Assembly: GCA_041483195.1 (NCBI GenBank)
Contig: JBGPFC010000056.1
Span: 1-17,812, forward strand
Source of the DNA: Candidatus Eiseniibacteriota bacterium
GTDB lineage: Bacteria; Eisenbacteria; RBG-16-71-46
DNA: 17,812 bases
Direction: 5' to 3'
Within the stretch, counting starts at the first letter, position 1; each line of letters starts with the position of its first letter. This document shows positions 1,912 to 17,812 of this stretch, piece by piece. Under the pieces are notes generated by a model, which saw nothing but the letters and a program-made list of their open reading frames with translations, was not told the origin of the DNA and searched no databases. The position numbers and the translations under genes are program-made.

Positions 1912-1957
1912 ACAGACCCGCGATTCAGAGGCCCATTCATCCCCCGGGATCCCGCCC

Positions 1958-3253
1958 ATGTTCTGGACCGACATCATCGAGGAGCACGTCGAAGAAGCGG
2001 CGTTCTGCTACGAGCAACGCCGCGCGGCGTTCGCCTCGAGGCAGTACCGCATCGAGACGCTGGCCGAGCTCGACGCGCGGCTCGTCGCGCACCTCGATGC
2101 CCTGCTGCTCTCCGAAGCCGAGGGCTGGGCGCAATCCGTCGCCGGGCTGGAATCCGAAAACGATGGGCCGGCCTTCGTCGCGGGATGGGTGGCGCTCGCG
2201 TCCGGGAGCGTGGAGTGGATCGGCGCGCTGGCGAAGGCGCTCGCCGCGCCGAAGGCGCTCCGCGGCCTGAGCGCAGCCTTGCGCCTCGCTCCGGGGGATG
2301 GCGTCGTGCCGGCGCTCGAGAAGTTTGCGGCGGCCGATCCGCTCGGTCCGCGCGCCCTCGCGCTCGACGCGCTCGCTTATCGCGGCCGCCCGGTCGAGCC
2401 GCGCGCGGTTCAGGCGCTGCTCGACGCCGCGAAGACCGCGGCGATCGGCGCGGGCCTCGCGATCATCGGGCGCCGGCGCATCGCGGCGCTCGCGGGCGGC
2501 GTGACCCGCGCGCTCGAGCATCCGCATCCCGCCGTGGCGCTCGCCGCGCTGCGTGCGGCACTGCGCCTGGAATTGCCGGGGGCGTTGCCCGCGCTGCGGG
2601 CGCGCGCCGCCGTAGACGATCCGCCCGGCGCCGAAGCGGTCCAGCTGCTGGGACTCGCGGGCGATGCCTCTGACATGAAGCTGTTGAGCCAGGCGGCGCG
2701 CACCGAAGCTCGCGGCCGCGCGGGGGTCGTCGCGCTCGGCCGGCTCGGGCACGCGGGGGGCGTGGAGACCTTGATCGCCGCGACCGAGAACGCGAAGCTC
2801 GCGCGCGTCGCGGGCCTCGCGCTCGAGACGCTGTTGGGCGTGGACCTGGTCGCCGCGAAGCTCGCGGCGCCGAAGCCGCCGGCGGCGGAAGGCGAGGAGG
2901 CGCTCGCGCTCGATCCAGACGTGGACCTGCCGACGCCGGATCCCAAGCGGATCCGCGCGTGGTGGAGCGAGCGCAAGACGCAACCCGACCGCGACGCGCG
3001 ACTGCGGCACGGCCAGCCCTTCGCGTGGGACGCCGTGGCGGGCGAAGCGCGCGACGGATTGCTGCCCGATCGCGACGCGGCGCTCCAGGAGATCGCGCTG
3101 CGGCTTCCGGCCGTGGCGTTCGTCGAGCGGAGCGACTGGGCCGCGCGCCAGCGCGACGCGACGGCGGGCCTCGCGGCCGAGGTGGCGGGCGCGACCCGCA
3201 AGCACACGCCGGGATCATGGACATCGTCGCCGGCCCAGCCGGGCCGGTCGTGA
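1958..3253 (+). CDS. TIGR02270-family HEAT/ARM-repeat-like T6SS accessory protein
   Basis: N-terminal IIEEHVEEAAF...LDARLVAHLDALL, Ala/Leu helical repeats, C-terminal DPDVDLPTPDP..RAWW..RLRHGQP. Lies between vgrG and DUF2169 as usual for this family. Confidence 0.8.
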   Translation: MFWTDIIEEHVEEAAFCYEQRRAAFASRQYRIETLAELDARLVAHLDALLLSEAEGWAQSVAGLESENDGPAFVAGWVALASGSVEWIGALAKALAAPKALRGLSAALRLAPGDGVVPALEKFAAADPLGPRALALDALAYRGRPVEPRAVQALLDAAKTAAIGAGLAIIGRRRIAALAGGVTRALEHPHPAVALAALRAALRLELPGALPALRARAAVDDPPGAEAVQLLGLAGDASDMKLLSQAARTEARGRAGVVALGRLGHAGGVETLIAATENAKLARVAGLALETLLGVDLVAAKLAAPKPPAAEGEEALALDPDVDLPTPDPKRIRAWWSERKTQPDRDARLRHGQPFAWDAVAGEARDGLLPDRDAALQEIALRLPAVAFVERSDWAARQRDATAGLAAEVAGATRKHTPGSWTSSPAQPGRS

Positions 3254-3273
3254 ATCAACCTGGGAGGCATCGC

Positions 3274-3753
3274 ATGTTGCTGGATCAACGTCGTCACAAG
3301 CCCGCGCCGTCCGCCGCGAAGCCGGAGCGCATCGGCGGCGCCCAGATCGGACGGGTCGTCGCGCTCGATGGAGCCGGCGCGCCGCTCGTGGACTATCCGG
3401 GCGCGCCCGCCGGCGCACGCCCCGCGGTGCTCGCGGCGCGCTGCCCGTGGGGCCTGCTCGAAGCCGGCATCGGGCATCACGTGGTGATGCTGTTCGAGAA
3501 CGGCGATCCGGCGCGGCCCCTGATCGTCGCGTGGGTCGAAGAGCCGGCCTCGGCGGCGGTCGGCACGCCGCGCAACCTCCGCGTGGATGGCGATCGCTTC
3601 GTGATCGAGGCGTCGCGCACCATCGAGTTGCGATGCGGCGAGGCGAGCCTCACGCTCACCGCCGACGGCAAGATCATGCTGAAGGGGCGAAACCTGCTCT
3701 CGCACGCGAAGCAGCTGAACCGGATTCGCGGCGCAGCGGTGCGGATCAACTGA
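3274..3753 (+). CDS. DUF6484-like T6SS-associated small protein (OB-fold/gp5-like)
   Basis: GGAGG at 3263-3267 before ATG 3274. Motifs GAPLVDYPG, VVMLFENGDPARPLIV, IELRCGEASLTLTADGKIMLKG, NRIRGAAVRIN. The ORF-track start at 2959 overlaps the upstream gene. Confidence 0.75.
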   Translation: MLLDQRRHKPAPSAAKPERIGGAQIGRVVALDGAGAPLVDYPGAPAGARPAVLAARCPWGLLEAGIGHHVVMLFENGDPARPLIVAWVEEPASAAVGTPRNLRVDGDRFVIEASRTIELRCGEASLTLTADGKIMLKGRNLLSHAKQLNRIRGAAVRIN

Positions 3754-3812
3754 TGGGCCGTCGCGGCGTTCGCAGCGCCCGGCATTCGCGCCGGTTCGCG
3801 GGGAGCTGAGCG

Positions 3813-4820
3813 TTGGAGCTCGCGAATCGCACCCCGTTTCCGGGCCAGCTCATCGTGGTCCCAGACCGCGACGGGTACGAGACGCTGGTCTCGGTGCTCA
3901 AGGGCACGTTCACGGTCGGTTCCGGCGCGTGTGAGCCCGCCGAAGAGCAGGCCGCGATCGTGGCCGCCGACGAGCCGTGGGGCGAGCCGGGCGCCTCGAG
4001 CACGCGTTACGAGTCGGACCTCGCGATCTTCAAGCCCGCGACCGACGTCGTGATGATCGGGCACGCGCATGCGCCGAAGAAGGGCACGCGCCAGATGGAC
4101 GTCTCGCTGCGGGTGGGCACGCTCGGACTCAAGGCGCGCGTGAGCGGCGATCGACACTGGGGCTACTTCCTCACGCTGCCCCGCATGTCGGCGCCCAAGC
4201 CGTTCGAGAAGATCCCGCTGGTGTTCGAGCGCGCGTTCGGCGGCGCCCAGCCCACGAAAGACGGAAAGGAAATCGAGTTCCTCGACGAGCGCAATCCCGT
4301 GGGGACCGGTTATGTGCGGAAGGGACGGCGCAAGTTCATCAACGGGCTCGCGGTGCCCAACATCGAGGACCCGCGCCGCCCGCTCAAGCGCCTCGGGCAG
4401 AAGCCGCCGCCCCTGGGTTTCGGCTATCTCGGCCGGCACTGGCTGGCGCGGCGCCAGTATCTCGGCACCTACGACAAGGCGTGGGAGGCGAATCGCCTGC
4501 CGCTCCTGCCGGAGGATTTCGACGAGCGCGCGTTCTGCGGCGCACCGGCCGCTCTGCAGGCGCTGCCGCACCTGGTGGGCGGCGAGCCGGTCCGCGCGAT
4601 CGGCGTGACCCCCGGCAAACCGCTGCGCTTCGATCTTCCCACCTACCGCCCCGCGATGGATGCCTACTTCGAGGGCAAGTGGGTCGCGCTCGAGCCCCTG
4701 CTCGACACCGTGGTGATCGAGCCGGACGTCCCGCGCGTCTGCCTCACGTGGCGCGCGCGGCTCCGCATCCACACCCGCGTGCGCGGGCTGCGCGGCGTGC
4801 GCATCCGGGAGGCGCGCTGA
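3813..4820 (+). CDS. DUF2169-family T6SS adaptor/chaperone
   Basis: TTG start with upstream GGAG. Motifs NRTPF, VLKGTF, YESDLAIFKPATDV, FERAFGG, NPVGTGY, GTYDKAW..LPEDFD, LDTVVIEPD..LTWR. Confidence 0.93.
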   Translation: MELANRTPFPGQLIVVPDRDGYETLVSVLKGTFTVGSGACEPAEEQAAIVAADEPWGEPGASSTRYESDLAIFKPATDVVMIGHAHAPKKGTRQMDVSLRVGTLGLKARVSGDRHWGYFLTLPRMSAPKPFEKIPLVFERAFGGAQPTKDGKEIEFLDERNPVGTGYVRKGRRKFINGLAVPNIEDPRRPLKRLGQKPPPLGFGYLGRHWLARRQYLGTYDKAWEANRLPLLPEDFDERAFCGAPAALQALPHLVGGEPVRAIGVTPGKPLRFDLPTYRPAMDAYFEGKWVALEPLLDTVVIEPDVPRVCLTWRARLRIHTRVRGLRGVRIREAR

Positions 4821-4822
4821 CC

Positions 4823-5902
4823 ATGGCGGCGGCAGGACGGCTCGGCATCGTGGGGGTGGGCAGCACGACCTCGCTCGGCGCGAGCACCAGGCAGCTGTGC
4901 GCGGCCCTGCGTGCGGGGCTCTCGCGCTTCGGCGAGAGCGAGGACTTTTCGTGCATGCCGCTCGACGACGTGGGCGGCGATCTGGAGCCCGCGCTGGTCG
5001 CGCCCGCGCGCAACGTGGATCCCGCGGCGAGCGGTCTCGATCGGCTGCTGGCCCTCACCGCGCCGGCGCTGGCCGAGGCGGCGCTCGATGCCGCGCTCAG
5101 GCGCGAGGACTTCGCGCGCGCGACGCTGCATCTCGTGCTCCCCGCAGCTTCGCGCCCCGGCCTCGCCGGGATCGAGGAGAAGTTCGTGCCCGAGCTGTGC
5201 AAGCGTGCCGCGCTGCCCGCGCCCGCCGCCGCCACCGCCTCGCGTGCCGGCAACAGCGGGTTCGCCGAGGCGCTGCGCGCCGCGCTGCGCGCGACCGCGG
5301 ACGACGAGGCCGCGCTCGCGATCGTGATCGGCGTCGATTCGCTGCTCGACAGCGCGACGATGAAGTGGCTGGATGCCGCGGGGCGGCTCAAGAGCTCGCG
5401 CAGCCCGGAGGGCGTCATCGCCGGCGAGGCGGCCGCGGTGTGCGTGCTCGAGCGGCGGCGCGCCGCGGAGTCGCGCGGTGCGAAGCCACGCGCCATGCTC
5501 GATGCCGTCGGCGTTGGCCAGGATCCCGCGACGGTCGCGAACCGGAAGCCGTGGACCGGCGACGGCATGTGCGCTGCGATGAGGAGCGCGTCCGCGCGGC
5601 TCGAACCGCCCAGGCCGCCCTGGGTGCTCACCGACATGAATGGCGACCGCTCGCGTGGGCAGGACTGGGGTTACGTCACCTCCCGCATGCACGAGCTGTT
5701 GCGCGGCCTGCGCGACACGTGGTACATCGCGGACATGCTCGGCGACGTGGGCGTCGCGGCCGGCGGGATCCTCGCGGCACGGGCGGCCGCGGCGTTCGAG
5801 CGCGAATACGCACCGTCGAGCGCGGCCTACCTGCTCCTGAGCTCCGACGACGGCGGCCGCGGGGCGATCGTGCTTTCTTCACCCAGGGGCGGAGGTGCCT
5901 GA
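4823..5902 (+). CDS. Thiolase/beta-ketoacyl-synthase-like T6SS accessory protein (PRK06147-like), probably non-catalytic
   Basis: ATG 2 nt after the DUF2169 stop, GGAGG upstream. KAS-like segments IVGVGSTTSLG..AALRAGLSRF, IVIGVDS, EGVIAGEAAA, DMNGD, LGDVGVAAG. The usual catalytic Cys and His positions read GNSG and LGDVG. Confidence 0.85.
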   Translation: MAAAGRLGIVGVGSTTSLGASTRQLCAALRAGLSRFGESEDFSCMPLDDVGGDLEPALVAPARNVDPAASGLDRLLALTAPALAEAALDAALRREDFARATLHLVLPAASRPGLAGIEEKFVPELCKRAALPAPAAATASRAGNSGFAEALRAALRATADDEAALAIVIGVDSLLDSATMKWLDAAGRLKSSRSPEGVIAGEAAAVCVLERRRAAESRGAKPRAMLDAVGVGQDPATVANRKPWTGDGMCAAMRSASARLEPPRPPWVLTDMNGDRSRGQDWGYVTSRMHELLRGLRDTWYIADMLGDVGVAAGGILAARAAAAFEREYAPSSAAYLLLSSDDGGRGAIVLSSPRGGGA

Positions 5903-6384
5903 TGCCGGCGACGGTGGTGGTGAACATGATGACGGTGGTGCACGCCAGCAGCAGCGGCATGGCGATGTTCATGCCCGACGTATGCCTCACGCCCGCGCCG
6001 CCCGCGCCGCCGATCCCGATTCCATACCCCAACATCGCGCAATCGAGCCAGATCTCGGATGGCAGCACCACGGTGAAGTGTGATGGCAATCCGGTCATGG
6101 TCCAGGACTCGAAGTTCAGCACCAGCAGCGGCGACGAGGCGGGCAGCGCGGGCGGAGGCGTGGTGACGCACACCCAGAAGGGCAAGGCCGAGTTCGTGAA
6201 CTTCTCGTTCGACGTGAAGTTCGACGGCAAGATGGTGGGCCGGCTGCTCGATCCGATGCTCGGGAACGAGATGTCGGCCAAGCCGCCCAACACGCCGCCC
6301 TCGCCCGAAATGCAGGCGCCAGCGGTCGCCGTGCCGATGCCGGAGCCGCCCTCCGGCGACTGGTCCATCGCGAGCTCGGGGTAG
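5902..6384 (+). CDS. DUF4150 (PIPY / PAAR-like) spike-tip protein, stand-alone
   Basis: TGATG overlap with the previous gene and GGAGG at 5891-5895. Motifs PDVCLTP, PIPIPYPN, STTVKCDG, SSGDEAGS, FSFDVKFDGKMVGRLLD. Short Pro-rich tail. Confidence 0.92.
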   Translation: MPATVVVNMMTVVHASSSGMAMFMPDVCLTPAPPAPPIPIPYPNIAQSSQISDGSTTVKCDGNPVMVQDSKFSTSSGDEAGSAGGGVVTHTQKGKAEFVNFSFDVKFDGKMVGRLLDPMLGNEMSAKPPNTPPSPEMQAPAVAVPMPEPPSGDWSIASSG

Positions 6385-6393
6385 GACGCCTTC

Positions 6394-7788
6394 ATGTCCA
6401 AGCAGTACGTGAATCTCAATCCCACCGCGGAGAACCCGCCGCGCGACGAGTACGGGCAGACGGTGAAGCTCAAGGCGTCGATCGCCGAGACCAAGCCCGG
6501 CGCCGCCGACACCGCGAAGGCGTTCTTCTTCATCGAGCCCGGCGGGAAGAACATGGACTTCAAGTACCTTCCCAAGAGCGGTCGGCCGGCGGCCTTCTAC
6601 CAGGATCCCAAGTACATCGTGCCGGCCGACGTGATCGACAAGAACGCGGTGGCCCAGGCGCAGATCTCGATCGCGGGCGGCGACACGTTCACGTTCAAGC
6701 GCGGGAAGGAGCGCGACAAGTCCGACTCCGCGAGCTACGGCAGCCTCGAGGCCGTCGTGTGGCGCAAGGTGATCGTGCGGCTCGGCCACATGAAGGGCTG
6801 CACGCCGATCGATCCCACGACGCTCACCAAGGATTTCGACCCGGTGTTCATCGAGGTCGAGAAGGACGGGGCCGATCACGAGCTCACCCACGCTTCGTTC
6901 GTCCAGGACGAGAACGCGGTTCTGGTCGAGCTCGCCGGCAAGTACGGCGCGCCCCCGACCCAGCCTTTCTGCACCGTTCCCACCGTATTCGTGGACCGCA
7001 TCGCATCGCCGGGGCAGCTCGACGTTCACGAGTTCTACATTCCCGAGGAGTTCGAGCGCACCAAGATTCAGTACGTCGAGTTCGATGGCCTGACGTGGCC
7101 GATGGGGAACGAGTGGCTCGTGAGCGGAGAGATCGAGGCGAGGGACAAGGACAACAAGGTGCGCGCGACCTGGAGCGATCTGCTGAAGCACGTGTCGCCC
7201 CGCACCTCGGGCGATGGTCTGCACTTCAAGCACCCGGAAGGGGGATACGCCTCGAGCCAGCTGAAACTCGACGCCGGCACGCTCGGCACCGCGTTCGACG
7301 ATTGGCTGAAGGCGGGCGAGGGGAAGCTCAAGATCACCGCGAAGATCAACATCCTCTCGGACGTCGCGAACGGCTTCTCCGCCAACGACAAGCCGCTGGT
7401 CGTGGTCGCGGTCCGCGATCCCTGGAGCGGGGCGGACCGCACCAAGATGGATCGGACCGTCGTCCACGAGTTCGGGCACGCGTTCGGGCTGGGCCACAAG
7501 GAGGTCCCCCTGTTCGACGCGGACAAGGGCGATCCCGCCGGCACCGAGAAGAACGGCTTGTGGTACGTGCAGAAGGGCGGCCAGGGCCCGCACTGCCATA
7601 CCGGCGCGACCGACAACGCCACCTCCGGCAATTGGGAGGACGGCTCCTGCGTCATGTTGGGATACGCTGCGACTACGCGGAAGACCTACTGCGAGAAGTG
7701 CATCTCGATCCTGAAACGAGCGCCGCTGAACAAGCTCGGACTGGTGACGATCAACAAGGAGGAATGGTGGAACATGACCAACACTTGA
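6394..7788 (+). CDS. Metzincin-type zinc metallopeptidase, candidate T6SS cargo effector
   Basis: HEFGHAFGLGH (HExxHxxGxxH) at 7465-7497, downstream CVM Met-turn and YCEKC. No signal peptide. Directly follows the PAAR-like gene. Confidence 0.75.
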   Translation: MSKQYVNLNPTAENPPRDEYGQTVKLKASIAETKPGAADTAKAFFFIEPGGKNMDFKYLPKSGRPAAFYQDPKYIVPADVIDKNAVAQAQISIAGGDTFTFKRGKERDKSDSASYGSLEAVVWRKVIVRLGHMKGCTPIDPTTLTKDFDPVFIEVEKDGADHELTHASFVQDENAVLVELAGKYGAPPTQPFCTVPTVFVDRIASPGQLDVHEFYIPEEFERTKIQYVEFDGLTWPMGNEWLVSGEIEARDKDNKVRATWSDLLKHVSPRTSGDGLHFKHPEGGYASSQLKLDAGTLGTAFDDWLKAGEGKLKITAKINILSDVANGFSANDKPLVVVAVRDPWSGADRTKMDRTVVHEFGHAFGLGHKEVPLFDADKGDPAGTEKNGLWYVQKGGQGPHCHTGATDNATSGNWEDGSCVMLGYAATTRKTYCEKCISILKRAPLNKLGLVTINKEEWWNMTNT

Positions 7789-7885
7789 GCGCGAGGGGCC
7801 AGGCCCGCGTTCTCGCGGCGCTTCACGCGCCCCGCCGGCGAACCGGCTGGCGTGCGGCCGGCCGAATCGACCCGGGGAGCGCCGC

Positions 7886-8419
7886 GTGAACACCCCGGAT
7901 GCGGCGGGCGGCGACCTCGCGTTTCTCGGCATCACGCTGCCATCGCGCGCGCCCTGCGAGGCGACGCCCGCCATGGCGGAAGATGGCCGCGGCTTTCGAA
8001 TCGCGGCCCCGCGGCGCGTGAACGCCGGCGATGGCGTGAGGCTTCCCATCTGCGGCGTGTGGCAGTTCGGGCCGGAACGGCGCGAGCTGGCGTTCGAGCT
8101 GTGGGAGGCGTGCGTGCTGGTACTGGTCGACGTGACGCACAATCGCGCGCGTGCCGTGACCCTGCGCGATCCCTCGCGCACCCCGGTGGAGCCGCTCCCG
8201 AAGCCGCCCGACTCCGATCCGGGCGCGGGCGGCCGAGCGGCTCCGTCCGACGGGCCGGTGAAGCGGGCGTCGCTCACTGCGGGCTACTACAATTTCGATC
8301 TCACCCGGTTCATCCCGCTGCCCCCTGCGCCCGCCGTGTACTACGTGTTTCTCACCCAGGCTCAGTACCACTCCAACACCGTCCGGGTGGAAGCGGTCGC
8401 GCCACCTGAGGAGAAGTGA
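7886..8419 (+). CDS. Hypothetical protein, candidate immunity/accessory protein A
   Basis: GGGGAG SD at 7874-7879 before GTG, protein-like composition, GTGA overlap with the next gene, C-terminal motif shared with the next gene. Confidence 0.65.
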   Translation: MNTPDAAGGDLAFLGITLPSRAPCEATPAMAEDGRGFRIAAPRRVNAGDGVRLPICGVWQFGPERRELAFELWEACVLVLVDVTHNRARAVTLRDPSRTPVEPLPKPPDSDPGAGGRAAPSDGPVKRASLTAGYYNFDLTRFIPLPPAPAVYYVFLTQAQYHSNTVRVEAVAPPEEK

Positions 8420-8835
8420 CCGTGAGCGAGCAGTTTCCGAACTTCGCGCGGAACGACGCATCGCCAAAGCTGCAGCCGGAGATCGGAGGCATCGCGGTGT
8501 CGGCGGGCGACGGCCGGATCGCCGAGGTCGTGCTGCGCGGCGCGTTCCGCGTGCTGCCGGGCGACCGCGGCGAATTGAAGAACGCCGCGCTGCGGGCGCA
8601 GGCGTGGGTGGTCGCGGTCGAGCGCGGGTCGCGCTCGATCCATCTCGGACAACCGGGCGCGGCCGCGGTGGTGTTCGATGGCGAGGAGGCGAAGACCGGC
8701 GCGGTCGATGGTTGGTTCAACGTGGGCCTCGCCGAGTGCTGCAAGCTGCCGAAGTCCGGTGCCGGGCTCTACGACGTGACCGCGGTGATCGGTCCATACA
8801 AGTCGCCCCCGATCGCTGTGAAACTGCGCGCGTGA
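8416..8835 (+). CDS. Hypothetical protein, candidate immunity/accessory protein B (start may be GTG 8422)
   Basis: GAGGAG at 8408-8413, overlap with the upstream stop, motif GWFNVGL...LP...YDV...YKS similar to the upstream gene. Confidence 0.7.
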   Translation: MTVSEQFPNFARNDASPKLQPEIGGIAVSAGDGRIAEVVLRGAFRVLPGDRGELKNAALRAQAWVVAVERGSRSIHLGQPGAAAVVFDGEEAKTGAVDGWFNVGLAECCKLPKSGAGLYDVTAVIGPYKSPPIAVKLRA

Positions 8836-8889
8836 TCGCGCGCGCCGGGCGGGCCGGCCCGCGACGCGTGCGCGCTCGGACCCGCGGCG

Positions 8890-10239
8890 CTAGCCGGCGC
8901 CGAGCGGCAGCATGAAGCCGAAGTCGATCGCCTTGGTCTCGAGGGTGATCGCCGGTTTGATGCGCACCTCGGCCATCGGCACCTTCTCGCCGTCGACCAG
9001 CTGCTCGCGCACCGTGACCGACACCGCGTCCTCGGGTTTCTCCCCGGCCAGCGTTCCCAGATGGCCGGTCAGCTCCTCGCGGAAGAACGCGGCCACCTGC
9101 TCTGGCGATCCCGCCGGCATCGCGTCCAGCAGCTGCCCGCAGAACTGGGCGAGGCGCGCGGCCGCGATCTGGTAGGCGATCGTCGCCTCGACCGTGAGCT
9201 TGCCGGGCGCGAGGCGGAACACCGTCACCGCCATCGGGATGATCGCGACGTTCGAGCGCAGCGGTCCCACCACCGGCGTGAACGCCGCGCGGTGCAGCTC
9301 GAGCATCTGCGTCTCGCTCATCGCGACCTCGGTCGCGAGCGGCGCCGTGACGTTGGCCTTGGTGGGGAACTCGCGCGTCGCGAGGCCCTCGAAGCGGCCG
9401 CCCTGCGGGCCGGCGATCGAGTAGGCGTGCCCGTGCTCGCGCACGCTGCGCGCGATCGCGGCGCCCACCAGCCACGCGCTGCGCCCCCACAGGTAGCTGT
9501 CGGGGTTGGACTCGCCAGCGGTCTCGGCGTGTCCGTTCGCGGCGGAGTAGGGGGCGCGCTGGAGGTAGCGATTGATGGCGAGCGCGATCCAGCGTGCGGG
9601 CTCGGTCGCCTGGAAATTGCGGAAGTTCGCGTGCGGCGGATCCCCGAGCTTCGTGAGCAGCTCCGGAAGCGCTGCGGCCTGGATCATGAAGCGGAAGTCG
9701 AAGAACCCGGCGGAGGCCGCGGCCACGATCGGCGCCTGCAGCACCTTCGCCATGCCCGCGAGATCGTTCAGGATCGCGAGATCCTCCGGCTTGTGGCTGA
9801 ACTCGAAATCGGCGATCACCAGCGAGAGCGGGGAGCCGCTCTCGAGCTCCGGCTTGAACACCGATTCACGGAAGCGCGCGGCGAGCGACTTGCGCGGCAC
9901 CGACATCACCTGGACCTCGACCGCGCCCGCCGCGTGCTGGAGCAGGAGCTTGAGCCCGCGCCAGGCGGACTCGACGCGCTGGAGCCCGGGGTGATGGAGC
10001 GCCGCGTCGATCGCGGCGGGCGAAGCCGCGCCGCCGAGGCGGGCCGCGATCGACTGCGGCGTGAAAGCCGAGGGATCGCGCAGCTCGATGCGCGCGGCCG
10101 GCGCCCCGGCCGCTGCGGGAATCTCGACCGAAGCGCCGAGCGAGCCGAGCCACGCATCGGCATCGGTCACGGCCGCGGGACGCGGCGACTCGACGCCGGC
10201 GTCGGTGATGACCAGTATTCTCCAGGCCAGGGGCTTCAT
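8890..10239 (-). CDS. Short TssB-TssC (VipA-VipB-like) fused contractile sheath protein, 449 aa
   Basis: ATG at 10239 with GAGAGGAG SD. TssB-like N-terminus (LAWRILVITD...IELRDPSAFTPQSI) then TssC motifs ALHHPGLQRVESAWRGLKLL, LVIADFEF, NRYLQRAPY, SYLWG, and C-terminal VRIKP. Confidence 0.85.
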   Translation of the reverse strand: MKPLAWRILVITDAGVESPRPAAVTDADAWLGSLGASVEIPAAAGAPAARIELRDPSAFTPQSIAARLGGAASPAAIDAALHHPGLQRVESAWRGLKLLLQHAAGAVEVQVMSVPRKSLAARFRESVFKPELESGSPLSLVIADFEFSHKPEDLAILNDLAGMAKVLQAPIVAAASAGFFDFRFMIQAAALPELLTKLGDPPHANFRNFQATEPARWIALAINRYLQRAPYSAANGHAETAGESNPDSYLWGRSAWLVGAAIARSVREHGHAYSIAGPQGGRFEGLATREFPTKANVTAPLATEVAMSETQMLELHRAAFTPVVGPLRSNVAIIPMAVTVFRLAPGKLTVEATIAYQIAAARLAQFCGQLLDAMPAGSPEQVAAFFREELTGHLGTLAGEKPEDAVSVTVREQLVDGEKVPMAEVRIKPAITLETKAIDFGFMLPLGAG

Positions 10240-10298
10240 GCGAGCTGCTCCTCTCGATCGTGGGGTGATGCGGATCGGCGCGATGGCCGCGATGGTTC

Positions 10299-12140
10299 TC
10301 AGGCGCCGAGCGGTATCTCGAACGCCACGTCGGGTAGCCCGCGCAACGGCCCCGCGACCGGCGAGACCCGCAGCGCGACGGCTTCGGCGCTCGCACCCTC
10401 GACCGTGACGCGCACCAGCTCGCCTTCGCGGGCCGTGGTCAGGAACGCGAGTCCCTTCGCCAGCGTGCTCGCGACTTCGTCCGGCCCGCGGGTGCGGTCC
10501 ATCCAGGCCACGAGGTGCGCGACCAGCGCGCCGATCTGCGCGAGGAACAGCTGGAACGGCAGCGACGCGCGGCGCGCGTCCGCCACGTTCGGCCGCTGGC
10601 CCTCGGCGGTGGCCGGACGATGCAGCGTCGGCGCGCTCGCCACGAATGCCGCGTCGGCGTTGCGCCGGCAGGCGAGCGCGAGGATGCCGCCCTGCGACAG
10701 CTCGAGCACGCGCCGTTCGGAGAGCAGCGCCTCGAGCGGGGCCTGCACCACCTCGGTGGTGCGGAGCCTGAGCGGCCGCACCGGCAGATCGCCGATCACG
10801 CCGCGGTCGTCGGGGCCGACGATCTCGGTGCCCCAGCCGGTGCGCTCGAAGCTCGCGGCCACCAGCACCGCGATCGCCCACGGCGGGCCGCACCACAGAT
10901 AGGAGGCGTCCGCGCCGATCGGATTCTCCTCGAACGCGAAGTCCTTCACCTTCTCCTGCTCGGCGCCGTATGGCGCGCGCAGCAAGAAGCGGTTGATGGT
11001 GAGCGTGATCCAGCGCGAGGCTTCGAGCGCGCGCAGCACGTTCCATCGCATGTGATCGTCGTCGCTCAGCAGGGTGGAGAGATCGTCGAGCCCGTCGGTC
11101 TGCGCGAGCGATGGCACCCCGAGCACGGTGGGGGAGAGCCCCGCGATCACCGGCAGCTGCACCGCCTCGGCCTCGCCGGCGAGCGCCGCCACGTCGTCGA
11201 AGTCGCCGGAGTCCGGGCCGAGGTCGAACGCGTGATCGAGCACGAGCAGCGGCACGCGCCCTTCGGTCCGCACGCTCGCGGCGAGCGGCGCGACCACCTC
11301 GCCGAAGGCGGCGAGCAGATCGGAACGCGCCGCGATCACGACGTGCAGGCGCACGCCGGTGCGGAAGTCGACGCGCCGGGTGAGCCAGCGGAGCGCGGTC
11401 CACACGCGCTCGAGCGCCTGAAAGCGCGGATGGTGGAGCGCGGCCCGCACCGTGCCGGCGATCGCGCCATCCAGCGCATCGCCGATCTGACGCAACGTCG
11501 CGGTCGGCACCGTGCCCTGCGTCCGCACCGCTCCGACGAACTCGCCGACCAGCGCGTCGAATACGCGCTGCGTCCGCGCGGTCTCGGAGGGTGAAGGCGT
11601 CTCGCTCGCGGCGGAGCCGCCCACATCCACCATGTCGAACAACGCGTCGATGCCGCCGCCGCTCGCGGGACGCGGCGTGACGGGTGGCCTGGTGGTCGCG
11701 ACCGGCGGCGGTGGAGCCGCCGCGGGCCGCGGCGGGGCCTGAGCGCCGCGATCGCCATCGAGCACCCGGCGCAGGGCCTCCACCAGCTCGGGCGGCTCGT
11801 GGATGGTCTCGATCGCCGCGCGCAATCCCGCGGCATCCGGCGCGCGCTCGCCGATGGCGCGCTTCAGCGCGAACAGCCCGCGCGTCGCGGGCAGCGCGGC
11901 GGCGAGGCCCTCGGGCCGGAACGCGCGAAAGTCGGGGAACTCGAGCCGCACCCGAAACGGCGAGCCGTCGGCTGCGGCGCCGGATGGCAGCTCGAGCGCG
12001 GCGCCCGCCTGCTTCATGAACTCGGCGAGATTCTCGCGATCGACGCGATGCGCGCGGCCGCGCAGGTCCTCGCCGGCGCTTCCGGGCGGAAGCAGATCGG
12101 CCACGACGATGAGATCCAGCGGCAGATCCGTGCGCTCCAT
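10299..12140 (-). CDS. Long TssB-TssC (VipA-VipB-like) fused contractile sheath protein, 613 aa
   Basis: ATG at 12140 with GGAGGT SD at 12144-12149. TssB-like LPLDLIVVADL..VDRENL..LEFPDFRAFRPEGL..LFALKR, Pro-rich linker, then TssC motifs ALHHPRFQALERVWTALRWL, NRFLLRAPYG, FAFEE, YLWC, GDLP. Confidence 0.88.
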   Translation of the reverse strand: MERTDLPLDLIVVADLLPPGSAGEDLRGRAHRVDRENLAEFMKQAGAALELPSGAAADGSPFRVRLEFPDFRAFRPEGLAAALPATRGLFALKRAIGERAPDAAGLRAAIETIHEPPELVEALRRVLDGDRGAQAPPRPAAAPPPPVATTRPPVTPRPASGGGIDALFDMVDVGGSAASETPSPSETARTQRVFDALVGEFVGAVRTQGTVPTATLRQIGDALDGAIAGTVRAALHHPRFQALERVWTALRWLTRRVDFRTGVRLHVVIAARSDLLAAFGEVVAPLAASVRTEGRVPLLVLDHAFDLGPDSGDFDDVAALAGEAEAVQLPVIAGLSPTVLGVPSLAQTDGLDDLSTLLSDDDHMRWNVLRALEASRWITLTINRFLLRAPYGAEQEKVKDFAFEENPIGADASYLWCGPPWAIAVLVAASFERTGWGTEIVGPDDRGVIGDLPVRPLRLRTTEVVQAPLEALLSERRVLELSQGGILALACRRNADAAFVASAPTLHRPATAEGQRPNVADARRASLPFQLFLAQIGALVAHLVAWMDRTRGPDEVASTLAKGLAFLTTAREGELVRVTVEGASAEAVALRVSPVAGPLRGLPDVAFEIPLGA

Positions 12141-12213
12141 GCGACCTCCGGGTTCGGCGCGACGCAGGGCGCCAGCCTGCGCCCGACGGGGCGCGCGGCA
12201 CCATGAGCCGCAC

Positions 12214-12242
12214 ACACTAGTCGCGCCGGCGCCGCGGGGCAA
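12214..12242 (-). promoter_or_regulatory. Putative sigma70-type promoter for the sheath genes
   Basis: Minus strand TTGCCC (12242-12237), 17 bp spacer, TAGTGT (12219-12214), about 70 bp upstream of ATG 12140. Confidence 0.5.
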
Positions 12243-12323
12243 CCGCCCCGATTCGGGCGCGAGCGGAGCCTCTCGGCGGCTCCCGGCCGGGCGCCGCGGC
12301 GCACGCGGGACGTGGCGGGGCGG

Positions 12324-12353
12324 TTGACATGGGCGGCGGGCGCTCCATAGATT
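12324..12353 (+). promoter_or_regulatory. Putative sigma70-type promoter for the MOSC-HK-RR-cdaR operon
   Basis: TTGACA (12324-12329), 18 bp spacer, TAGATT (12348-12353). GAGGAG SD at 12385-12390 before ATG 12399. Confidence 0.6.
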
Positions 12354-12398
12354 TCGGCGAAGCTGGCCAGCCGCGCCCCGTTCCGAGGAGACCTCGCC

Positions 12399-12827
12399 AT
12401 GCCCCCCACCGTGGTCGCACTCCATCTCACCCCCGCCCGCCGCGAGGCGCTGGTGCCGGTCGAGCACGTCACCGCGTTGCTCGAGACCGGTCTCGACGGG
12501 GACCGCCACGCCCGGCGCGACAGCCGGCGACAGGTGCTGCTCGTCGAGCAGGAAGTGCTCGACGGCTTCGGGCTCGCGCCGGGCGCCATTCGCGAACAGG
12601 TCACGGTGCGCGGCCTCGACCTGAACGCACTCCCCTTCGGCGCGCGCATCCGGGTGGGCGGCGCGACGCTCGAGATGGCGGGGCCGTGCGCGCCGTGCGC
12701 GCGCATGGACGAGATCCGGCCGGGACTGCAGGGCGAGCTCGAGGGCCGGCGCGGGCGCTTCGCCCGAGTGACCGGCGCCGGTACCTTTGCGGTCGGCGAC
12801 GTGCTCAGGGTCGAGCCGCCGGCCTGA
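12399..12827 (+). CDS. MOSC-domain protein
   Basis: Motifs GLDGDRH, RQVLL, PGAIREQVTVRGLDL, RIRVGGATLE, PCAPCARM, GTFAVGD. Good SD. Confidence 0.88.
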   Translation: MPPTVVALHLTPARREALVPVEHVTALLETGLDGDRHARRDSRRQVLLVEQEVLDGFGLAPGAIREQVTVRGLDLNALPFGARIRVGGATLEMAGPCAPCARMDEIRPGLQGELEGRRGRFARVTGAGTFAVGDVLRVEPPA

Positions 12828-12874: not shown

Positions 12875-14172
12875 CTGCAGCGCACCATCTCCGGCACCGT
12901 GCTGCTCGCCGCGGTCGCGATCCTCGCGACCTGCGCGCTCTCGTGGTACTCGTATCGAGGGGTGCGCACCGCGCTCGATGACGAGTTCGCGCGCCGCCTC
13001 GCCAACGTGTCGAGCGCGACCGCCGCGCAGATCAGCGCAGACGATATCGGGGACGCGGAGCGTCTCGGCGACGAGGGCGCGGGCTTCGCGAATCTCCAGG
13101 TGCAGCTCGAAGCGCTGCGCACCACGACCGGGCTCGCGAACGCCTCGTTGTTCGATTCGCTCGGTCTCACCATCTACGACTGCCGCGGCCCGGAGTACCA
13201 GCACGAGACCACGCGCCTCGACACGCTCGCGCACGCGGCGGTCGAGACCGCGCTGCGCGGACGCGCGGTGGTCACTCCCACGTTCGTCCTCGCGGGCCGG
13301 GAGGCCCGGGCTGGTCTCGCGCCGGTGATGGGGCGGAGCGGCAGCGTCGCGGGCGTGGTCGCGGTCGAGGGCCGGCTCGAATACCTGCCGGTGCTCGCCC
13401 GGTTCCGGCGCGGGCTCCTGCTCTCGGCGCTGGTGATCGCGCTCACGCTGGTGGTGCTGGTGGTGCTCCGCATTCGCATGGCGCTCGCCGCCGAGCGGCT
13501 CGAGCGGCGGCTGAGCCGCGCCGAGAATCTCGCGGCGATGGGCCGCCTCACCGCCACGCTCGCGCACGAGATCAAGAACCCGCTCGCGATCATCCGCGGC
13601 TCCGCGCAGCGACTCGGCAAGCTCGAGCCCGAGGCGGAGCGCATGGCGGCGTTCATCGTGGAGGAGAGCGACCGGCTCAGTCACACGGTCGCGCGCTACC
13701 TGCAGTTCGCGCGCGCCGAGGCGGGGACCGGAGAGCATGGCGACGCGGCGGGGGCGCTCGCCGCCACCCTCGACCTGCTCGATGGCGAATGCCGCGAGCG
13801 GCGGGTCGATGTGGCGCGCGGCGAGGCCGGAGCGCCCGCCATCGTCTCGCTCGATCACGAGTCGCTCAAGCAGGTCTACCTCAACCTGATCCTGAACGCG
13901 CTCGAGGCGATGCCCGAGGGGGGCAGGCTCACGGTCACACGCGTGGAGCACGGGGCGCGCATCGAGTTCACGATCGCCGACACCGGATCGGGCATCGCCC
14001 CCGAGGCGGTCGGCCGGGCCGGGGACCCGTTCTTCACCACCAAGGCGAAGGGCTCGGGCCTGGGTCTCTTTCTCGCGCGAAGGCTGGTACAGTCCGCGGG
14101 CGGCGACCTGGAGATGCGAAGCGAAGCCGGCCGCGGTACGACGGCCATCGTGCGGTTCCCACGCGTGAAAGG

Positions 14173-14176
<4 letters not shown>
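12875..14176 (+). CDS. Membrane sensor histidine kinase (NtrB-like); start uncertain, CTG 12875 preferred, GTG 12899 alternative
   Basis: Two hydrophobic TM segments. H-box LAHEIKNPL, N-box NLILNALEAM, G1 DTGSGI, F-box PFFTTK, G2 GSGLGL. ATGA overlap with the regulator. Confidence 0.93.
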
Positions 14177-15650
<1,474 letters not shown>

Positions 15651-15654
<4 letters not shown>

Positions 15655-16313
15655 ACGTGATCCGCGGGCTGCTGCTCGACAACCTGGGGCTCAAGCTGGT
15701 GGCGCTGCTCATGGCGCTGCTGGTCTACCTGAACGTCTACACCGACCGGCCCGCCACCATGATCGTGAGCTTCCCGCTCCAGCTCGCGGACCTGCCGGAT
15801 TCGATATCGCTCTCGGGGCCGGTTCCCGCCGCGGTGCAGGCCGAGATCCGCGGCACCGGCAAGCAGCTCATCCGGCTTCGCCTCACCGAGCCGCATCTCA
15901 GCGTCTCGCTCGCCGGGGTCGCGACCGGGCGCTTCGAGCGCGCGTTCAGCGCGGCGGATCTTCCGCTCAGCGAAGGCCTCGAGGTCGAGCGCATGGTCGG
16001 CCCGCGCATGCTCGAGATCGACCTCGATCGCAAGCGTGTATTGCGCATCCCGGTCGCGGCACGAGTCGAGGGCGCGCCCGCGGCCGGCGTCGCGCACAGC
16101 GGGGCCGTCGTCGTGGATCCCGCGCGGGTGACGCTCACCGGACCCGCGAAGGTCATCGCGAAGCTCGACAGCATCGCGCTCGCGACGGTGCGCATCGACG
16201 GCCGGCGCGACACGGTGCGCGTGCAGGTCGGACCGGACGCGCTGCCCGACTGGTGCACCATGACGCCGGCGACGGTCACGGTGACGGTGCCGCTCAAGCG
16301 CGGCCCGGGCTGA
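15651..16313 (+). CDS. CdaR/YbbR-like domain membrane-anchored protein
   Basis: GTGA overlap with the regulator stop, GGAGG at 15637-15641. N-terminal DNLGLKLVALLMALLVYLNV anchor typical of YbbR; two beta-rich repeats (AEIRGT, PARVTLTGP). Confidence 0.75.
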
Positions 16314-16325
16314 GCGCGAGGGCGC

Positions 16326-16362
16326 GAAACAGCACGCGCCCGGCCGCGTGAGACCGGGCGCG
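16326..16362 (-). terminator. GC-rich terminator-like hairpin with an imperfect U-tract
   Basis: Minus strand CGCGCCCGGUC-UCACGC-GGCCGGGCGCG (11 bp, one G-U) then UGCUGUUUC. It may also stop the convergent cdaR transcript. Confidence 0.55.
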
Positions 16363-16482
16363 AACGAGGAATCGGAAGCGCTCGAGAGGCCGATGCGCTC
16401 CGGGCCAAGATGTTAGCGGGGTCGGTGGCCGCGCTGGAGATGGCAGGCATGGAGGTAGGACGCGACTCCGCCCCCCGCTGGC
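16326..16482 (-). ncRNA. Candidate sigma54-dependent small RNA with three stem-loops
   Basis: Starts at the predicted +1 of the sigma54 promoter. SL1 16415-16479, SL2 16373-16402, SL3 16335-16362 followed by UGCUGUUU. G-U pairs favour the minus strand. Confidence 0.6.
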
Positions 16483-16493
16483 CGTGACGGACC

Positions 16494-16508
16494 GCAAGCC
16501 ATGTGCCA
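16494..16508 (-). promoter_or_regulatory. Sigma54 (RpoN) -24/-12 promoter
   Basis: Minus strand TGGCAC-ATGGC-TTGC matches the TGGCAC-N5-TTGC consensus; intergenic, next to a sigma54 activator operon. Confidence 0.75.
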
Positions 16509-16800
16509 CCCGATCGTGCATCTCACGATCCCGCACAGAAGGCCCAACGGCGCGGCTTTGAGCTGCGTTGCGATCCGCGGTGGGGAAAATGCCGCGCACC
16601 GGGAGCCTGCGAAGCGCACGCCGCGGATGACGCTCTGCAAGGCGCGGCGTTCCATCGCCTCCATCCGTCCGCCGCCTCCGCCGCGCCCGTCGCGCCCGCC
16701 GCGCCGCCCTCGAAGCCGGGCTCAAGCCCCGCGGGTGCGGGGTCGATACACGTCTCGACGCGCGCGTGCGCGAAGGATCGGAACCGCGCTCTCCTGGCCC

Positions 16801-16829
16801 TTGACACTGCCGAGCGCCGCGCCTAGAGT
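16801..16829 (+). promoter_or_regulatory. Sigma70 promoter of rho
   Basis: TTGACA (16801-16806), 17 bp spacer, TAGAGT (16824-16829), followed by an AT-rich TTTATT. Confidence 0.75.
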
Positions 16830-17160
16830 TTTATTCGTTGGCCGACCCGATGTGGCGCCTCCAGGCGCTCGGGCGGCTCAGATCCGGCGACCGGTCCCAC
16901 GCGAAACCTCGGGCGCGCCGGCCTTCTCAGAGCCCATCCGTTCGAATCCCGCCGCTCCGCGGCTTTCGTTCACTCGCTCCACCATTCATGAGGAACCCGT
17001 TCGCGGCCTTTCCGAAGCCCGAACTCACACACCACCCGAACCCCTGATCCGACGGCCTGCGGGCCGCTGACGACCCGCATCCACGGCCCAACCGTCACGG
17101 CCCGCGCTTTCGGCGTGCGGTGAGACGGCAACGCCAAACCCTCGCGAAGGCGAACCCACG

Positions 17161-17812
17161 ATGGAAACCACCGAGACCACGTCCACTCCCACGCCCACCC
17201 CGCCCCCGAGCCAGGCCCAAACCCTCGAGCTCACCCAGCTCAAGGGCAAGACCATGGCGGAGCTCCTGCACCTCTGCCAGGAGCTCAACGTTCAGGGCCT
17301 GAGTGGCCTGCGCAAGCAGGAACTGATCTTCAAGATCCTCGAGGCGCAGACCGAGAAGAACGGTCTGATCTTCGCAGAGGGCGTGCTCGAGATCCTGCCC
17401 GAGGGTTACGGCTTCCTGCGTTCGCCGACCTACAACTACCTGCCGGGCCCTGACGACATCTACGTCTCGCCCTCACAGATCAAGCGCTTCGACCTGCACA
17501 CCGGCGACACCGTGTCGGGACAGGTGCGCCCTCCCAAGGAAGGCGAGCGCTACTTCGCGCTGCTGCGCGTCGAGGCTGTGAACTTCGAGAGCCCGGAGGC
17601 GGCGAAGGACAAGATCCTCTTCGACAACCTCACGCCGCTCTACCCGGTGGACAAGATCAACCTCGAGAGCAAGGACCGCTGCATCGAGACCCGCATCATC
17701 GACCTGCTGTGCCCGTTCGGAAAAGGCCAGCGGGCGCTCATCACCTCGCCGCCCAAGGCGGGCAAGACCATCCTGCTCCAGAAGATCGCGAACGCGATCA
17801 GCGAGAACCACC
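17161..17812 (+). CDS. rho: Transcription termination factor Rho, 3'-truncated by the window edge (absent from the ORF track)
   Basis: Manual translation from ATG 17161: [101 protein letters not shown]. Confidence 0.98.

Follow-up and report, generated by a model that had tools for sequence, protein, structure and literature searches.

The question raised by this stretch of DNA is whether the spacer between a ybbR-like gene and rho holds a gene for a small RNA (sRNA), and, if it does, what switches that gene on and how its RNA acts. The stretch, called the window below, is the whole of the 17,812 nt (70.8% GC) analysed here from contig JBGPFC010000056.1 of a Candidatus Eiseniibacteriota bacterium (Candidatus Eisenbacteria), the genome of which (G000; 4.17 Mb, 71% GC) is 96.8% complete. 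The original prediction was of an unannotated, sigma-54-driven sRNA on the minus strand, with three stem-loops and an anti-Shine-Dalgarno loop, lying next to a sigma-54 two-component system. Comparison with related genomes leads us to conclude that a real sigma-54-dependent sRNA gene is very probably present. For the fuller explanation, in which this sRNA is activated by the neighbouring regulator and acts in trans by pairing of its loop, we put the probability at roughly 0.6; within it, the activator, the accumulation of the RNA, the base-pairing and the targets are what we infer. The parts of the element, in the order in which they would be transcribed, are as follows.

16494..16508, minus strand: sigma-54 -24/-12 promoter TGGCAC-ATGGC-TTGC, TGGCACATGGCTTGC, an exact match.
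16482, minus strand: predicted transcription start, placed 12 nt past the C of the -12 GC, the usual sigma-54 spacing.
16416..16478, minus strand: stem-loop 1 (SL1), a long interrupted stem under the conserved loop, from the fold and from helices 1 and 2 of the covariance model.
16435..16459, minus strand: apical loop of 25 nt, C-rich, presumed to be the functional (seed or binding) region from its composition in the family and from column conservation.
16441..16448, minus strand: invariant octamer GCCUGCCA within the loop, identical in 47 of 47 distinct homologs.
16373..16402, minus strand: stem-loop 2 (SL2), homolog of the family's terminator hairpin, weakened here, from alignment with relatives; the model match at 16369-16484 ends there.
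16326..16362, minus strand: stem-loop 3 (SL3), an extra 11-bp hairpin with the tail UGCUGUUUC, the likely terminator in this genome, from a terminator scan and the fold.

The consensus promoter element is found exactly where the original prediction had placed it, at 16508-16494 on the minus strand, and TGGCACATGGCTTGC is the sole match in the window, even with one mismatch tolerated. Sigma-54 promoters require an ATP-driven enhancer-binding protein. The genome encodes rpoN (one Sigma54_DBD match) and about 22 strong Sigma54_activat matches genome-wide, one of them 0.7 kb from the RNA. The strict motif TGGCA[CT]-N5-TTGC occurs 13 times on both strands of the 4.17 Mb; 12 of these lie outside crude open reading frame (ORF) calls and 8 sit 37-174 nt before a called start, which makes a strict match an almost clean sign of a sigma-54 promoter in G000.

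Folding the minus strand from 16482 gives the SL1 stems AGCGGGG/CCCCGCU, CGG/CCG and GUCGCGU/GCGCGGC, and these stems, the 25-nt loop, the second hairpin at 16402-16373 and the 11-bp terminator-like hairpin are all where they had been predicted. When single-sequence folds are compared with shuffles, the minus strand does better than the plus strand (z = -2.03 against -1.03), but the difference from chance is modest. Such a z-score, together with the 0.85 one-mismatch promoter-like matches expected per window, is what can be said for the reading that nothing real is present, only a chance promoter match and the hairpins of any GC-rich spacer. Since the fold is modest against shuffles, the case rests on comparison with other genomes.

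When 16300-16560 was compared by BLASTN with 40 related genomes, 16 of them, all from the same family, gave matches to the promoter-plus-SL1 part, at 70-86% identity. A covariance model, R1 (124 positions, 33 pairs, built from 42 sequences), was then used to search 151 genomes of the phylum, the counts from which cover related, partly incomplete metagenome-assembled genomes. R1 matches its own genome (a single copy, 16369-16484, minus strand, 69 bits) and, of the 59 others in its family, 46, with one copy per matched genome; the matches come from 22 genera. It gave no match in 92 genomes from 16 other families of the phylum, a set that includes one genome flagged as unpublished (G026), on which no positive claim is based. 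A relaxed rescan of five genomes gave, beyond the family, only matches of E = 0.3-0.95, in one genome. Inside the family, strict filters had overlooked a diverged copy in G014, which has the promoter, and in three genomes (G024, G132 and G151) the syntenic spacer holds no such RNA. A scan of named genome contigs with the loop pattern returned many chance matches in the coding DNA of unrelated taxa, plus a set of contigs with the full architecture; nearly all of the latter bear the label Candidatus Eisenbacteria, the exceptions being two with other names and several given just as uncultured bacterium. As far as searched, the RNA family thus appears to be confined to one family of Candidatus Eisenbacteria.

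It is worth adding that the loop pattern also matches an identical coding-like stretch in picocyanobacterial contigs (L043, L048, L055, L063, L075, L096, L108 and L137, with Synechococcus or Cyanobium labels, except that L048 is labelled Candidatus Sulfopaludibacter). These stretches have no sigma-54 promoter and are unrelated to the sRNA.

The promoter is conserved along with the RNA. The model match begins at 16484, close to the predicted start at 16482, and the motif TGGCA[CT]-N5-[TC]TGC ends 5-10 nt ahead of the model start in 47 of 47 distinct homologs. R1 carries no promoter information, because the model starts about 10 nt past the promoter; the count of 47 includes 30 loci from this promoter-blind search, 19 of which were examined directly and 11 of which were already in the set. 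Promoter, stems, loop and terminator are kept in dozens of genomes, and it was on conservation of this kind in relatives that the original prediction had staked itself.

For covariation, 62 matches (47 distinct) were aligned to R1. Standard pairs fill 86.9% of 1510 cells, a figure that falls to 42-49% once the 3' partners are displaced by 1-3 columns; 26 of the 33 pairs show changes on both sides (in SL1, model helices 1 and 2 have compensatory changes at 12 of 18 pairs), and none of 500 shuffles reached the observed values, although these statistics overstate independence, as R1 itself shaped the alignment and the genomes are relatives of one another. Support independent of the model was therefore looked for. 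From a plain MAFFT alignment, RNAalifold recovers the inner stem and the terminator, and 12 of the 22 pairs it predicts are compensatory; most relatives, folded as single sequences, take on the same shape; and cognate 5' and 3' arms pair at -34.5 kcal/mol, against -30.4 kcal/mol for non-cognate arms. Covariation had been proposed as a check on the prediction, and it is seen in both kinds of alignment. The conservation of promoter, loop and covarying stems in 47 distinct sequences from 22 genera contradicts the reading of the locus as chance, as does the rarity of the exact motif (13 in 4.17 Mb), and we regard that reading as exceedingly improbable.

Further data bear on the strand. G-U pairs make up 212 of the 1510 cells, and pairing drops to 76.8% if the opposite strand is read; the original prediction had noted that the G-U pairs of SL1 and SL3 work on the minus strand only. 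The G-U pairs, the promoter and the T-tails all indicate the minus strand.

Nor does the region appear to encode a protein. GC3 frame analysis gives no coding signal in 16314-17160, the two long ORFs that span the sRNA region are without a Pfam match, and an ATG within the loop becomes GAG in relatives. A small-ORF reading was accordingly rejected, there being no GC3 signal, no Pfam match and no conserved start codon. Searches with the 4227 models of Rfam 15, one of the checks suggested at the outset, found no family whose gathering threshold was reached by the window, and at E <= 10 gave two chance microRNA matches only, both outside the RNA. The claim of an unannotated, non-coding unit on the minus strand therefore stands.

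The claim of three stem-loops stands for this genome but not for the family. The family form has two hairpins, namely a long interrupted stem with a loop of 25-30 nt and, after a C/A-rich linker, a terminator hairpin, the latter being a covarying 15-bp helix. SL3 has no counterpart in relatives, those of the same genus included, and is specific to this lineage. It is called independently by the terminator scan (16362-16335, minus strand; 11 bp plus TGCTGTTTCG) and sits 13 nt from the ybbR-like stop codon. The predicted RNA would measure about 115 nt with its end after SL2, or about 157 nt with its end at SL3. The T-tails of the family are often weak, because a T-run of at least 3 follows the terminator hairpin in just 27 of 46 copies and is weak or absent in the rest.

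The arrangement of the neighbouring genes bears on whether this is a free-standing gene and on what may control it. The genes concerned are these.

12899..14176, plus strand: sensor histidine kinase (HisKA and HATPase_c; Pfam).
14173..15654, plus strand: NtrC-type response regulator (REC, sigma-54 AAA+ and HTH_8; Pfam), the candidate activator.
15642..16313, plus strand: YbbR-domain protein (Pfam PF07949), which closes the regulator operon and converges on the sRNA.
16801..16829, plus strand: sigma-70-type promoter TTGACA-17-TAGAGT (10 of 12 matches in a promoter scan), assigned to the divergent rho.
17161..17811, plus strand: 5' part of rho, divergent from the sRNA (Pfam Rho_N and Rho_RNA_bind).

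The histidine kinase and NtrC-type regulator predicted beside the RNA are thus identified by Pfam. The kinase is AtoS/ZraS-like and scores under all NCBIfam cut-offs, and the regulator is a generic AtoC/NtrC/ZraR-like protein that reaches no NCBIfam equivalog. The spacer between ybbR and rho is 847 nt in the window.

A linkage survey covered 45 distinct loci. In 36 of the 43 loci with enough upstream flank rho adjoins the RNA (35 divergent, 1 co-oriented), and in 36 of the 41 with enough flank on the other side ybbR and/or the regulator lies downstream of it. The ybbR stop codon is 15-150 nt from the terminator in 23 loci, the window included, and other genes, spanning 1.3-3 kb, separate the RNA from ybbR in 12 loci (L038, L076, L054, L101, L050, L058, L072, L158, L002, L010, L150 and L151). 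The one co-oriented case is L016 (G016:C1, ~465766-465889), in which the whole unit is inverted, so that rho starts 363 nt downstream of the RNA and ybbR lies 253 nt before it. In four further loci (L005, L007, L170 and L178) the unit is intact, with its promoter, and lies away from both neighbours. The inversion in L016 and the relocation in these four loci with the promoter kept argue that the unit is autonomous.

These loci also bear on two readings in which the RNA would matter through its position. According to the first, it is a cis element: sigma-54 transcription would run against the end of the operon and cause convergent interference, or antisense action on read-through toward rho, the RNA itself being secondary. 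The orientation of the unit, convergent with ybbR and divergent from rho, is indeed held in all loci that retain the neighbourhood except L016, the terminator lies close to the ybbR stop in the 23 loci mentioned, and the plus strand is without a T-tail after the shared hairpin, so that read-through from ybbR to rho is conceivable. Yet a cis element leaves the invariant loop and the covarying stems unexplained; the unit stays intact when inverted or in unrelated neighbourhoods, is separated from ybbR in the 12 loci with intervening genes, and has a conserved terminator that precedes the neighbouring gene. We therefore judge this reading improbable. The second reading is that of a 5' leader or attenuator of downstream genes rather than a free sRNA. 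It would suit L038, where the inserted TetR-like and peptidase-like genes (3235-5036, plus strand) are on the same strand as the sRNA, about 130 nt past the hairpin, and where the tail GUCGUCUCC is without a T-run. However, in the 23 loci that include the window the next gene is convergent at 15-150 nt, and there is therefore no same-strand gene to lead into; a leader is a still weaker proposition than a cis element, and a riboswitch was set aside along with it.

A self-contained sRNA gene remains the preferred reading, and the question is then what activates it. The spacer upstream of the promoter is otherwise diverged, but in relatives it retains CGTGCA and, about 20 nt on, TGCG-N-TTCGCA. 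In the window the corresponding sites are the following.

16636..16640, minus strand: TTGCA (CGTGCA in most relatives), candidate distal enhancer block, from a MAFFT alignment of 46 upstream regions.
16608..16618, minus strand: palindrome TGCGCTTCGCA (TGCG-N3-CGCA), candidate activator site 110 bp before the -24 element, from comparison with relatives.
16569..16579, minus strand: imperfect second copy of the palindrome, CGCGGATCGCA, from the sequence.

The distal block is conserved at 70% or above in the alignment of 46 upstream regions. Of 46 relatives, 20 have the form TGC[GA]-N3-[CT]GCA at 100-121 bp ahead of the -24 element and most of the remainder a degenerate version; a looser pattern for the composite block GTGCA...TGCG-N3-CGCA is found in 33 of the 46. 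Among the 13 strict sigma-54 sites in the genome, a palindrome within 220 bp upstream is found at the sRNA promoter only, and L007, one of the relocated units, retains it. We consider the conserved block a candidate enhancer, since both its distance and its dyad symmetry fit an enhancer-binding site. A relaxed genome scan with enhancer plus promoter for more members of the regulon gave 776 noisy matches and no convincing second site. Of 70 genomes of the family, 60 encode an ortholog of the regulator, at 66-83% identity. The conserved linkage and the candidate enhancer suggest that the sRNA is probably activated by the adjacent NtrC-type regulator.

Another of the 13 strict motifs deserves mention in its own right. 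In locus L185 (G000 contig C8, ~72607-72860, plus strand) the motif TGGCATGTGAGTTGC lies directly 3' of another enhancer-binding-protein gene (PF00158 match at C8:71466-71963), and is followed by about 230 nt without coding signal and then by a strong hairpin that ends in a T-tail. Of 18 other genomes of the family, 7 share the 3' 110 nt at 77-84% identity, and Rfam gave a sub-threshold asX1 match only. L185 may encode a second sigma-54-dependent sRNA adjoining its activator.

With regard to how the RNA acts, its unpaired loop is the best conserved part and reads UCC-Y-A-CC..CC-GA-GCCUGCCA-Y-C-UCC. Across the family C makes up 53% of the loop and G 12%, and a loop holds about 6.5 CC dinucleotides. 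As an anti-Shine-Dalgarno element, which is what the original prediction called it, the loop is weak: of 47 loops, 8 contain CCUCC and 34 CUCC, against all 47 for the octamer GCCUGCCA. Hfq and ProQ domains were not found in the genome.

Put together, the explanation we favour would run as follows. The NtrC-type regulator of the kinase/regulator/ybbR operon would bind the GTGCA...TGCG-N3-CGCA block about 110 bp upstream and activate sigma-54 transcription of a self-contained sRNA gene from near 16482 on the minus strand. In the resulting RNA, a long stem would display the C-rich, G-poor loop of 25-30 nt with GCCUGCCA, followed by a C/A-rich single-stranded linker and an intrinsic terminator. 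The loop would pair in trans with G-rich stretches of mRNAs, independently of Hfq, and the sRNA would be the output arm of the two-component system.

Besides the overstated covariation statistics and the weak T-tails of many copies, several results count against this explanation. A look-up of sequencing runs listed no RNA run for this sequence, a result that does not bear on expression either way. As to the activator, the three genomes that lack the RNA (G024, G132 and G151) keep regulator and ybbR beside rho, two others (G008 and G011) have a weak RNA match and no regulator ortholog at E <= 1e-120, other genes intervene before ybbR in the 12 loci listed above, and in L083 rho is present with no regulator within 2.9 kb. 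With about 22 strong enhancer-binding proteins in the genome the activator is not settled, and adjacency is suggestive rather than proof, because of these many candidates and because RNA and regulator are not always together. The helix-turn-helix (HTH) domain of the regulator shows no co-variation with variants of the palindrome, and so gives no specific link, but this comparison is uninformative because the HTH is almost invariant.

As to the targets, a scan was made of 2,578 start regions, from 2,590 crude GC3-based ORF calls, using RNAduplex with a 26-nt loop. The duplex energies of the loop beat 11 of 12 mononucleotide shuffles over these regions, one shuffle being better. The top matches (a membrane protein, a leucyl-aminopeptidase-like gene and pdxS) were set aside as untrustworthy in a 71% GC genome. 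Perfect complements of the core are not enriched near starts: the 10-mer has 16 sites, one of them near a start, and the complement of the core 8-mer shows no enrichment against 30 permuted 8-mers. The best seed-like site, upstream of pdxS, was rejected as not conserved, its motif being present in its own locus and one other of 30. Finally, a 13-nt complement pattern with one mismatch is as frequent in 41 genomes as its reversed control, and its exact matches are largely the sRNA gene itself. The failure of these searches counts for little, since any probe rich in C will pair with a genome of 71% GC. On balance, we regard the odds that the RNA acts by base-pairing of its loop as about even.

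The same results can be read in another way, namely that the loop is a platform that sequesters or recruits an RNA-binding protein, as in GlmY or 6S RNA. This is the main rival to pairing in trans. The loop is conserved over its whole 25-30 nt, with an invariant octamer and some 6.5 CC dinucleotides, which is beyond what a typical seed of 6-8 nt would need; no conserved complementary target came out of the searches; and with Hfq and ProQ not found, another partner protein is possible. No candidate protein can be named, however. CsrA is encoded in the genome and binds GGA, according to PMC13443453, but GGA is present in 0 of 47 loops, and a reading of the RNA as a CsrA sponge was rejected for this reason. 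The failed target search, for its part, is weak evidence for a decoy, given the pairing of any C-rich probe in such a genome. A protein-binding or decoy function is in our view unlikely, though less so than any of the other rivals.

A more specific form of trans action would be titration of Rho: the loop and linker would resemble a Rho loading site, and the two-component signal would relax Rho-dependent termination genome-wide. That rho adjoins the RNA in 36 of 43 informative loci would fit this, as would a loop with 53% C, 12% G and about six CC, for which no base-pairing target was found. But a Rho site would be expected to have longer unpaired C-rich stretches, the form of the RNA is kept in the four loci away from rho, and the linkage to rho may just reflect conserved gene order. 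We give Rho titration very little credence. Trans-acting pairing of the loop, under control of the neighbouring two-component system, remains the explanation that we prefer.

Two features elsewhere in the window may be recorded here. The GTCTTGAC motif of the rho promoter region is found again in relatives, and the untranslated leader of rho, about 330 nt long, holds a short terminator-like hairpin with a T-tail at 16951-16963 (plus strand), which may point to autoregulation of rho through attenuation. At the other end of the window, 19-12827 is a Type VI secretion-like cluster, with VgrG (19-1911), DUF2169 (3813-4820), a PAAR-like toxin-domain protein (4897-6384), a minus-strand tandem pair of VipB/TssC-like sheath genes (8890-10299 and 10299-~11900) and a closing MOSC-domain gene (12399-12827).

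Of the known systems, Pxr of Myxococcus xanthus and other myxobacteria is the closest. In the sections of PMC5684412 that describe it, Pxr has a predicted sigma-54 promoter and an upstream enhancer-binding region, is linked to the histidine kinase PxrK and the NtrC-like PxrR, and has several stem-loops, all as here, where the enhancer-binding region is a candidate. The same sections place pxr directly downstream of pxrR, whereas here a ybbR-like gene lies between and the RNA is convergent. The comparison with Pxr is by gene layout alone as given there (PMC5684412), and the negative Rfam result may not cover Pxr. Its direct binding targets remain unknown, according to PMC11928866. Pxr has three hairpins, against two in the family form in Eisenbacteria, and belongs to a different phylum.

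In Enterobacteriaceae, glmY adjoins the genes of its two-component system. The regulator of that system, QseE/QseF (GlrK/GlrR), is described in PMC6075780 and PMC3045617 as activating a sigma-54 promoter via upstream activating sequences, and GlmY is described in PMC7073468 as a decoy for RapZ. The present RNA differs in having no Rfam match, and its regulator scores 311 bits against a cut-off of 763 for the NCBIfam GlrR model. The Qrr RNAs of Vibrio are Hfq-dependent and have several paralogs. Here there is a single copy, Hfq was not found and there is no Rfam match. Qrr with LuxO would share with this RNA the dependence of an sRNA on sigma-54 under an enhancer-binding protein, which PMC10162802 sets out for Qrr. 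The regulator here scores 287 bits against a cut-off of 800 for the LuxO model. As for pairing without Hfq, the C-rich unpaired loops of Firmicutes sRNAs of the RsaE/RoxS type could pair with G-rich ribosome-binding regions in this way. Those sRNAs have sigma-70-type promoters, come from other phyla and have no sequence relation to the present RNA, in which CCUCC is found in 8 of 47 loops only.

The kind of system is thus already familiar, and for a specialist the surprise is moderate. A full-text literature search that joined 'Eisenbacteria' and 'small RNA' returned nothing relevant, its match concerning CsrA. Eisenbacteria are known from metagenome-assembled genomes only. If the explanation is true, this would be a first well-supported riboregulator of the phylum; its promoter class is defined, its presumed functional loop is sharply delimited, and there are candidates for its enhancer and for a two-component system dedicated to it. 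The covariance model R1 could be used for annotating the RNA family. The recurring design that joins a small RNA to a sigma-54 promoter and an NtrC-type regulator, seen in GlmY, Qrr and Pxr, would be extended to a distant phylum, and in Eisenbacteria to a genome where Hfq and ProQ were not found.

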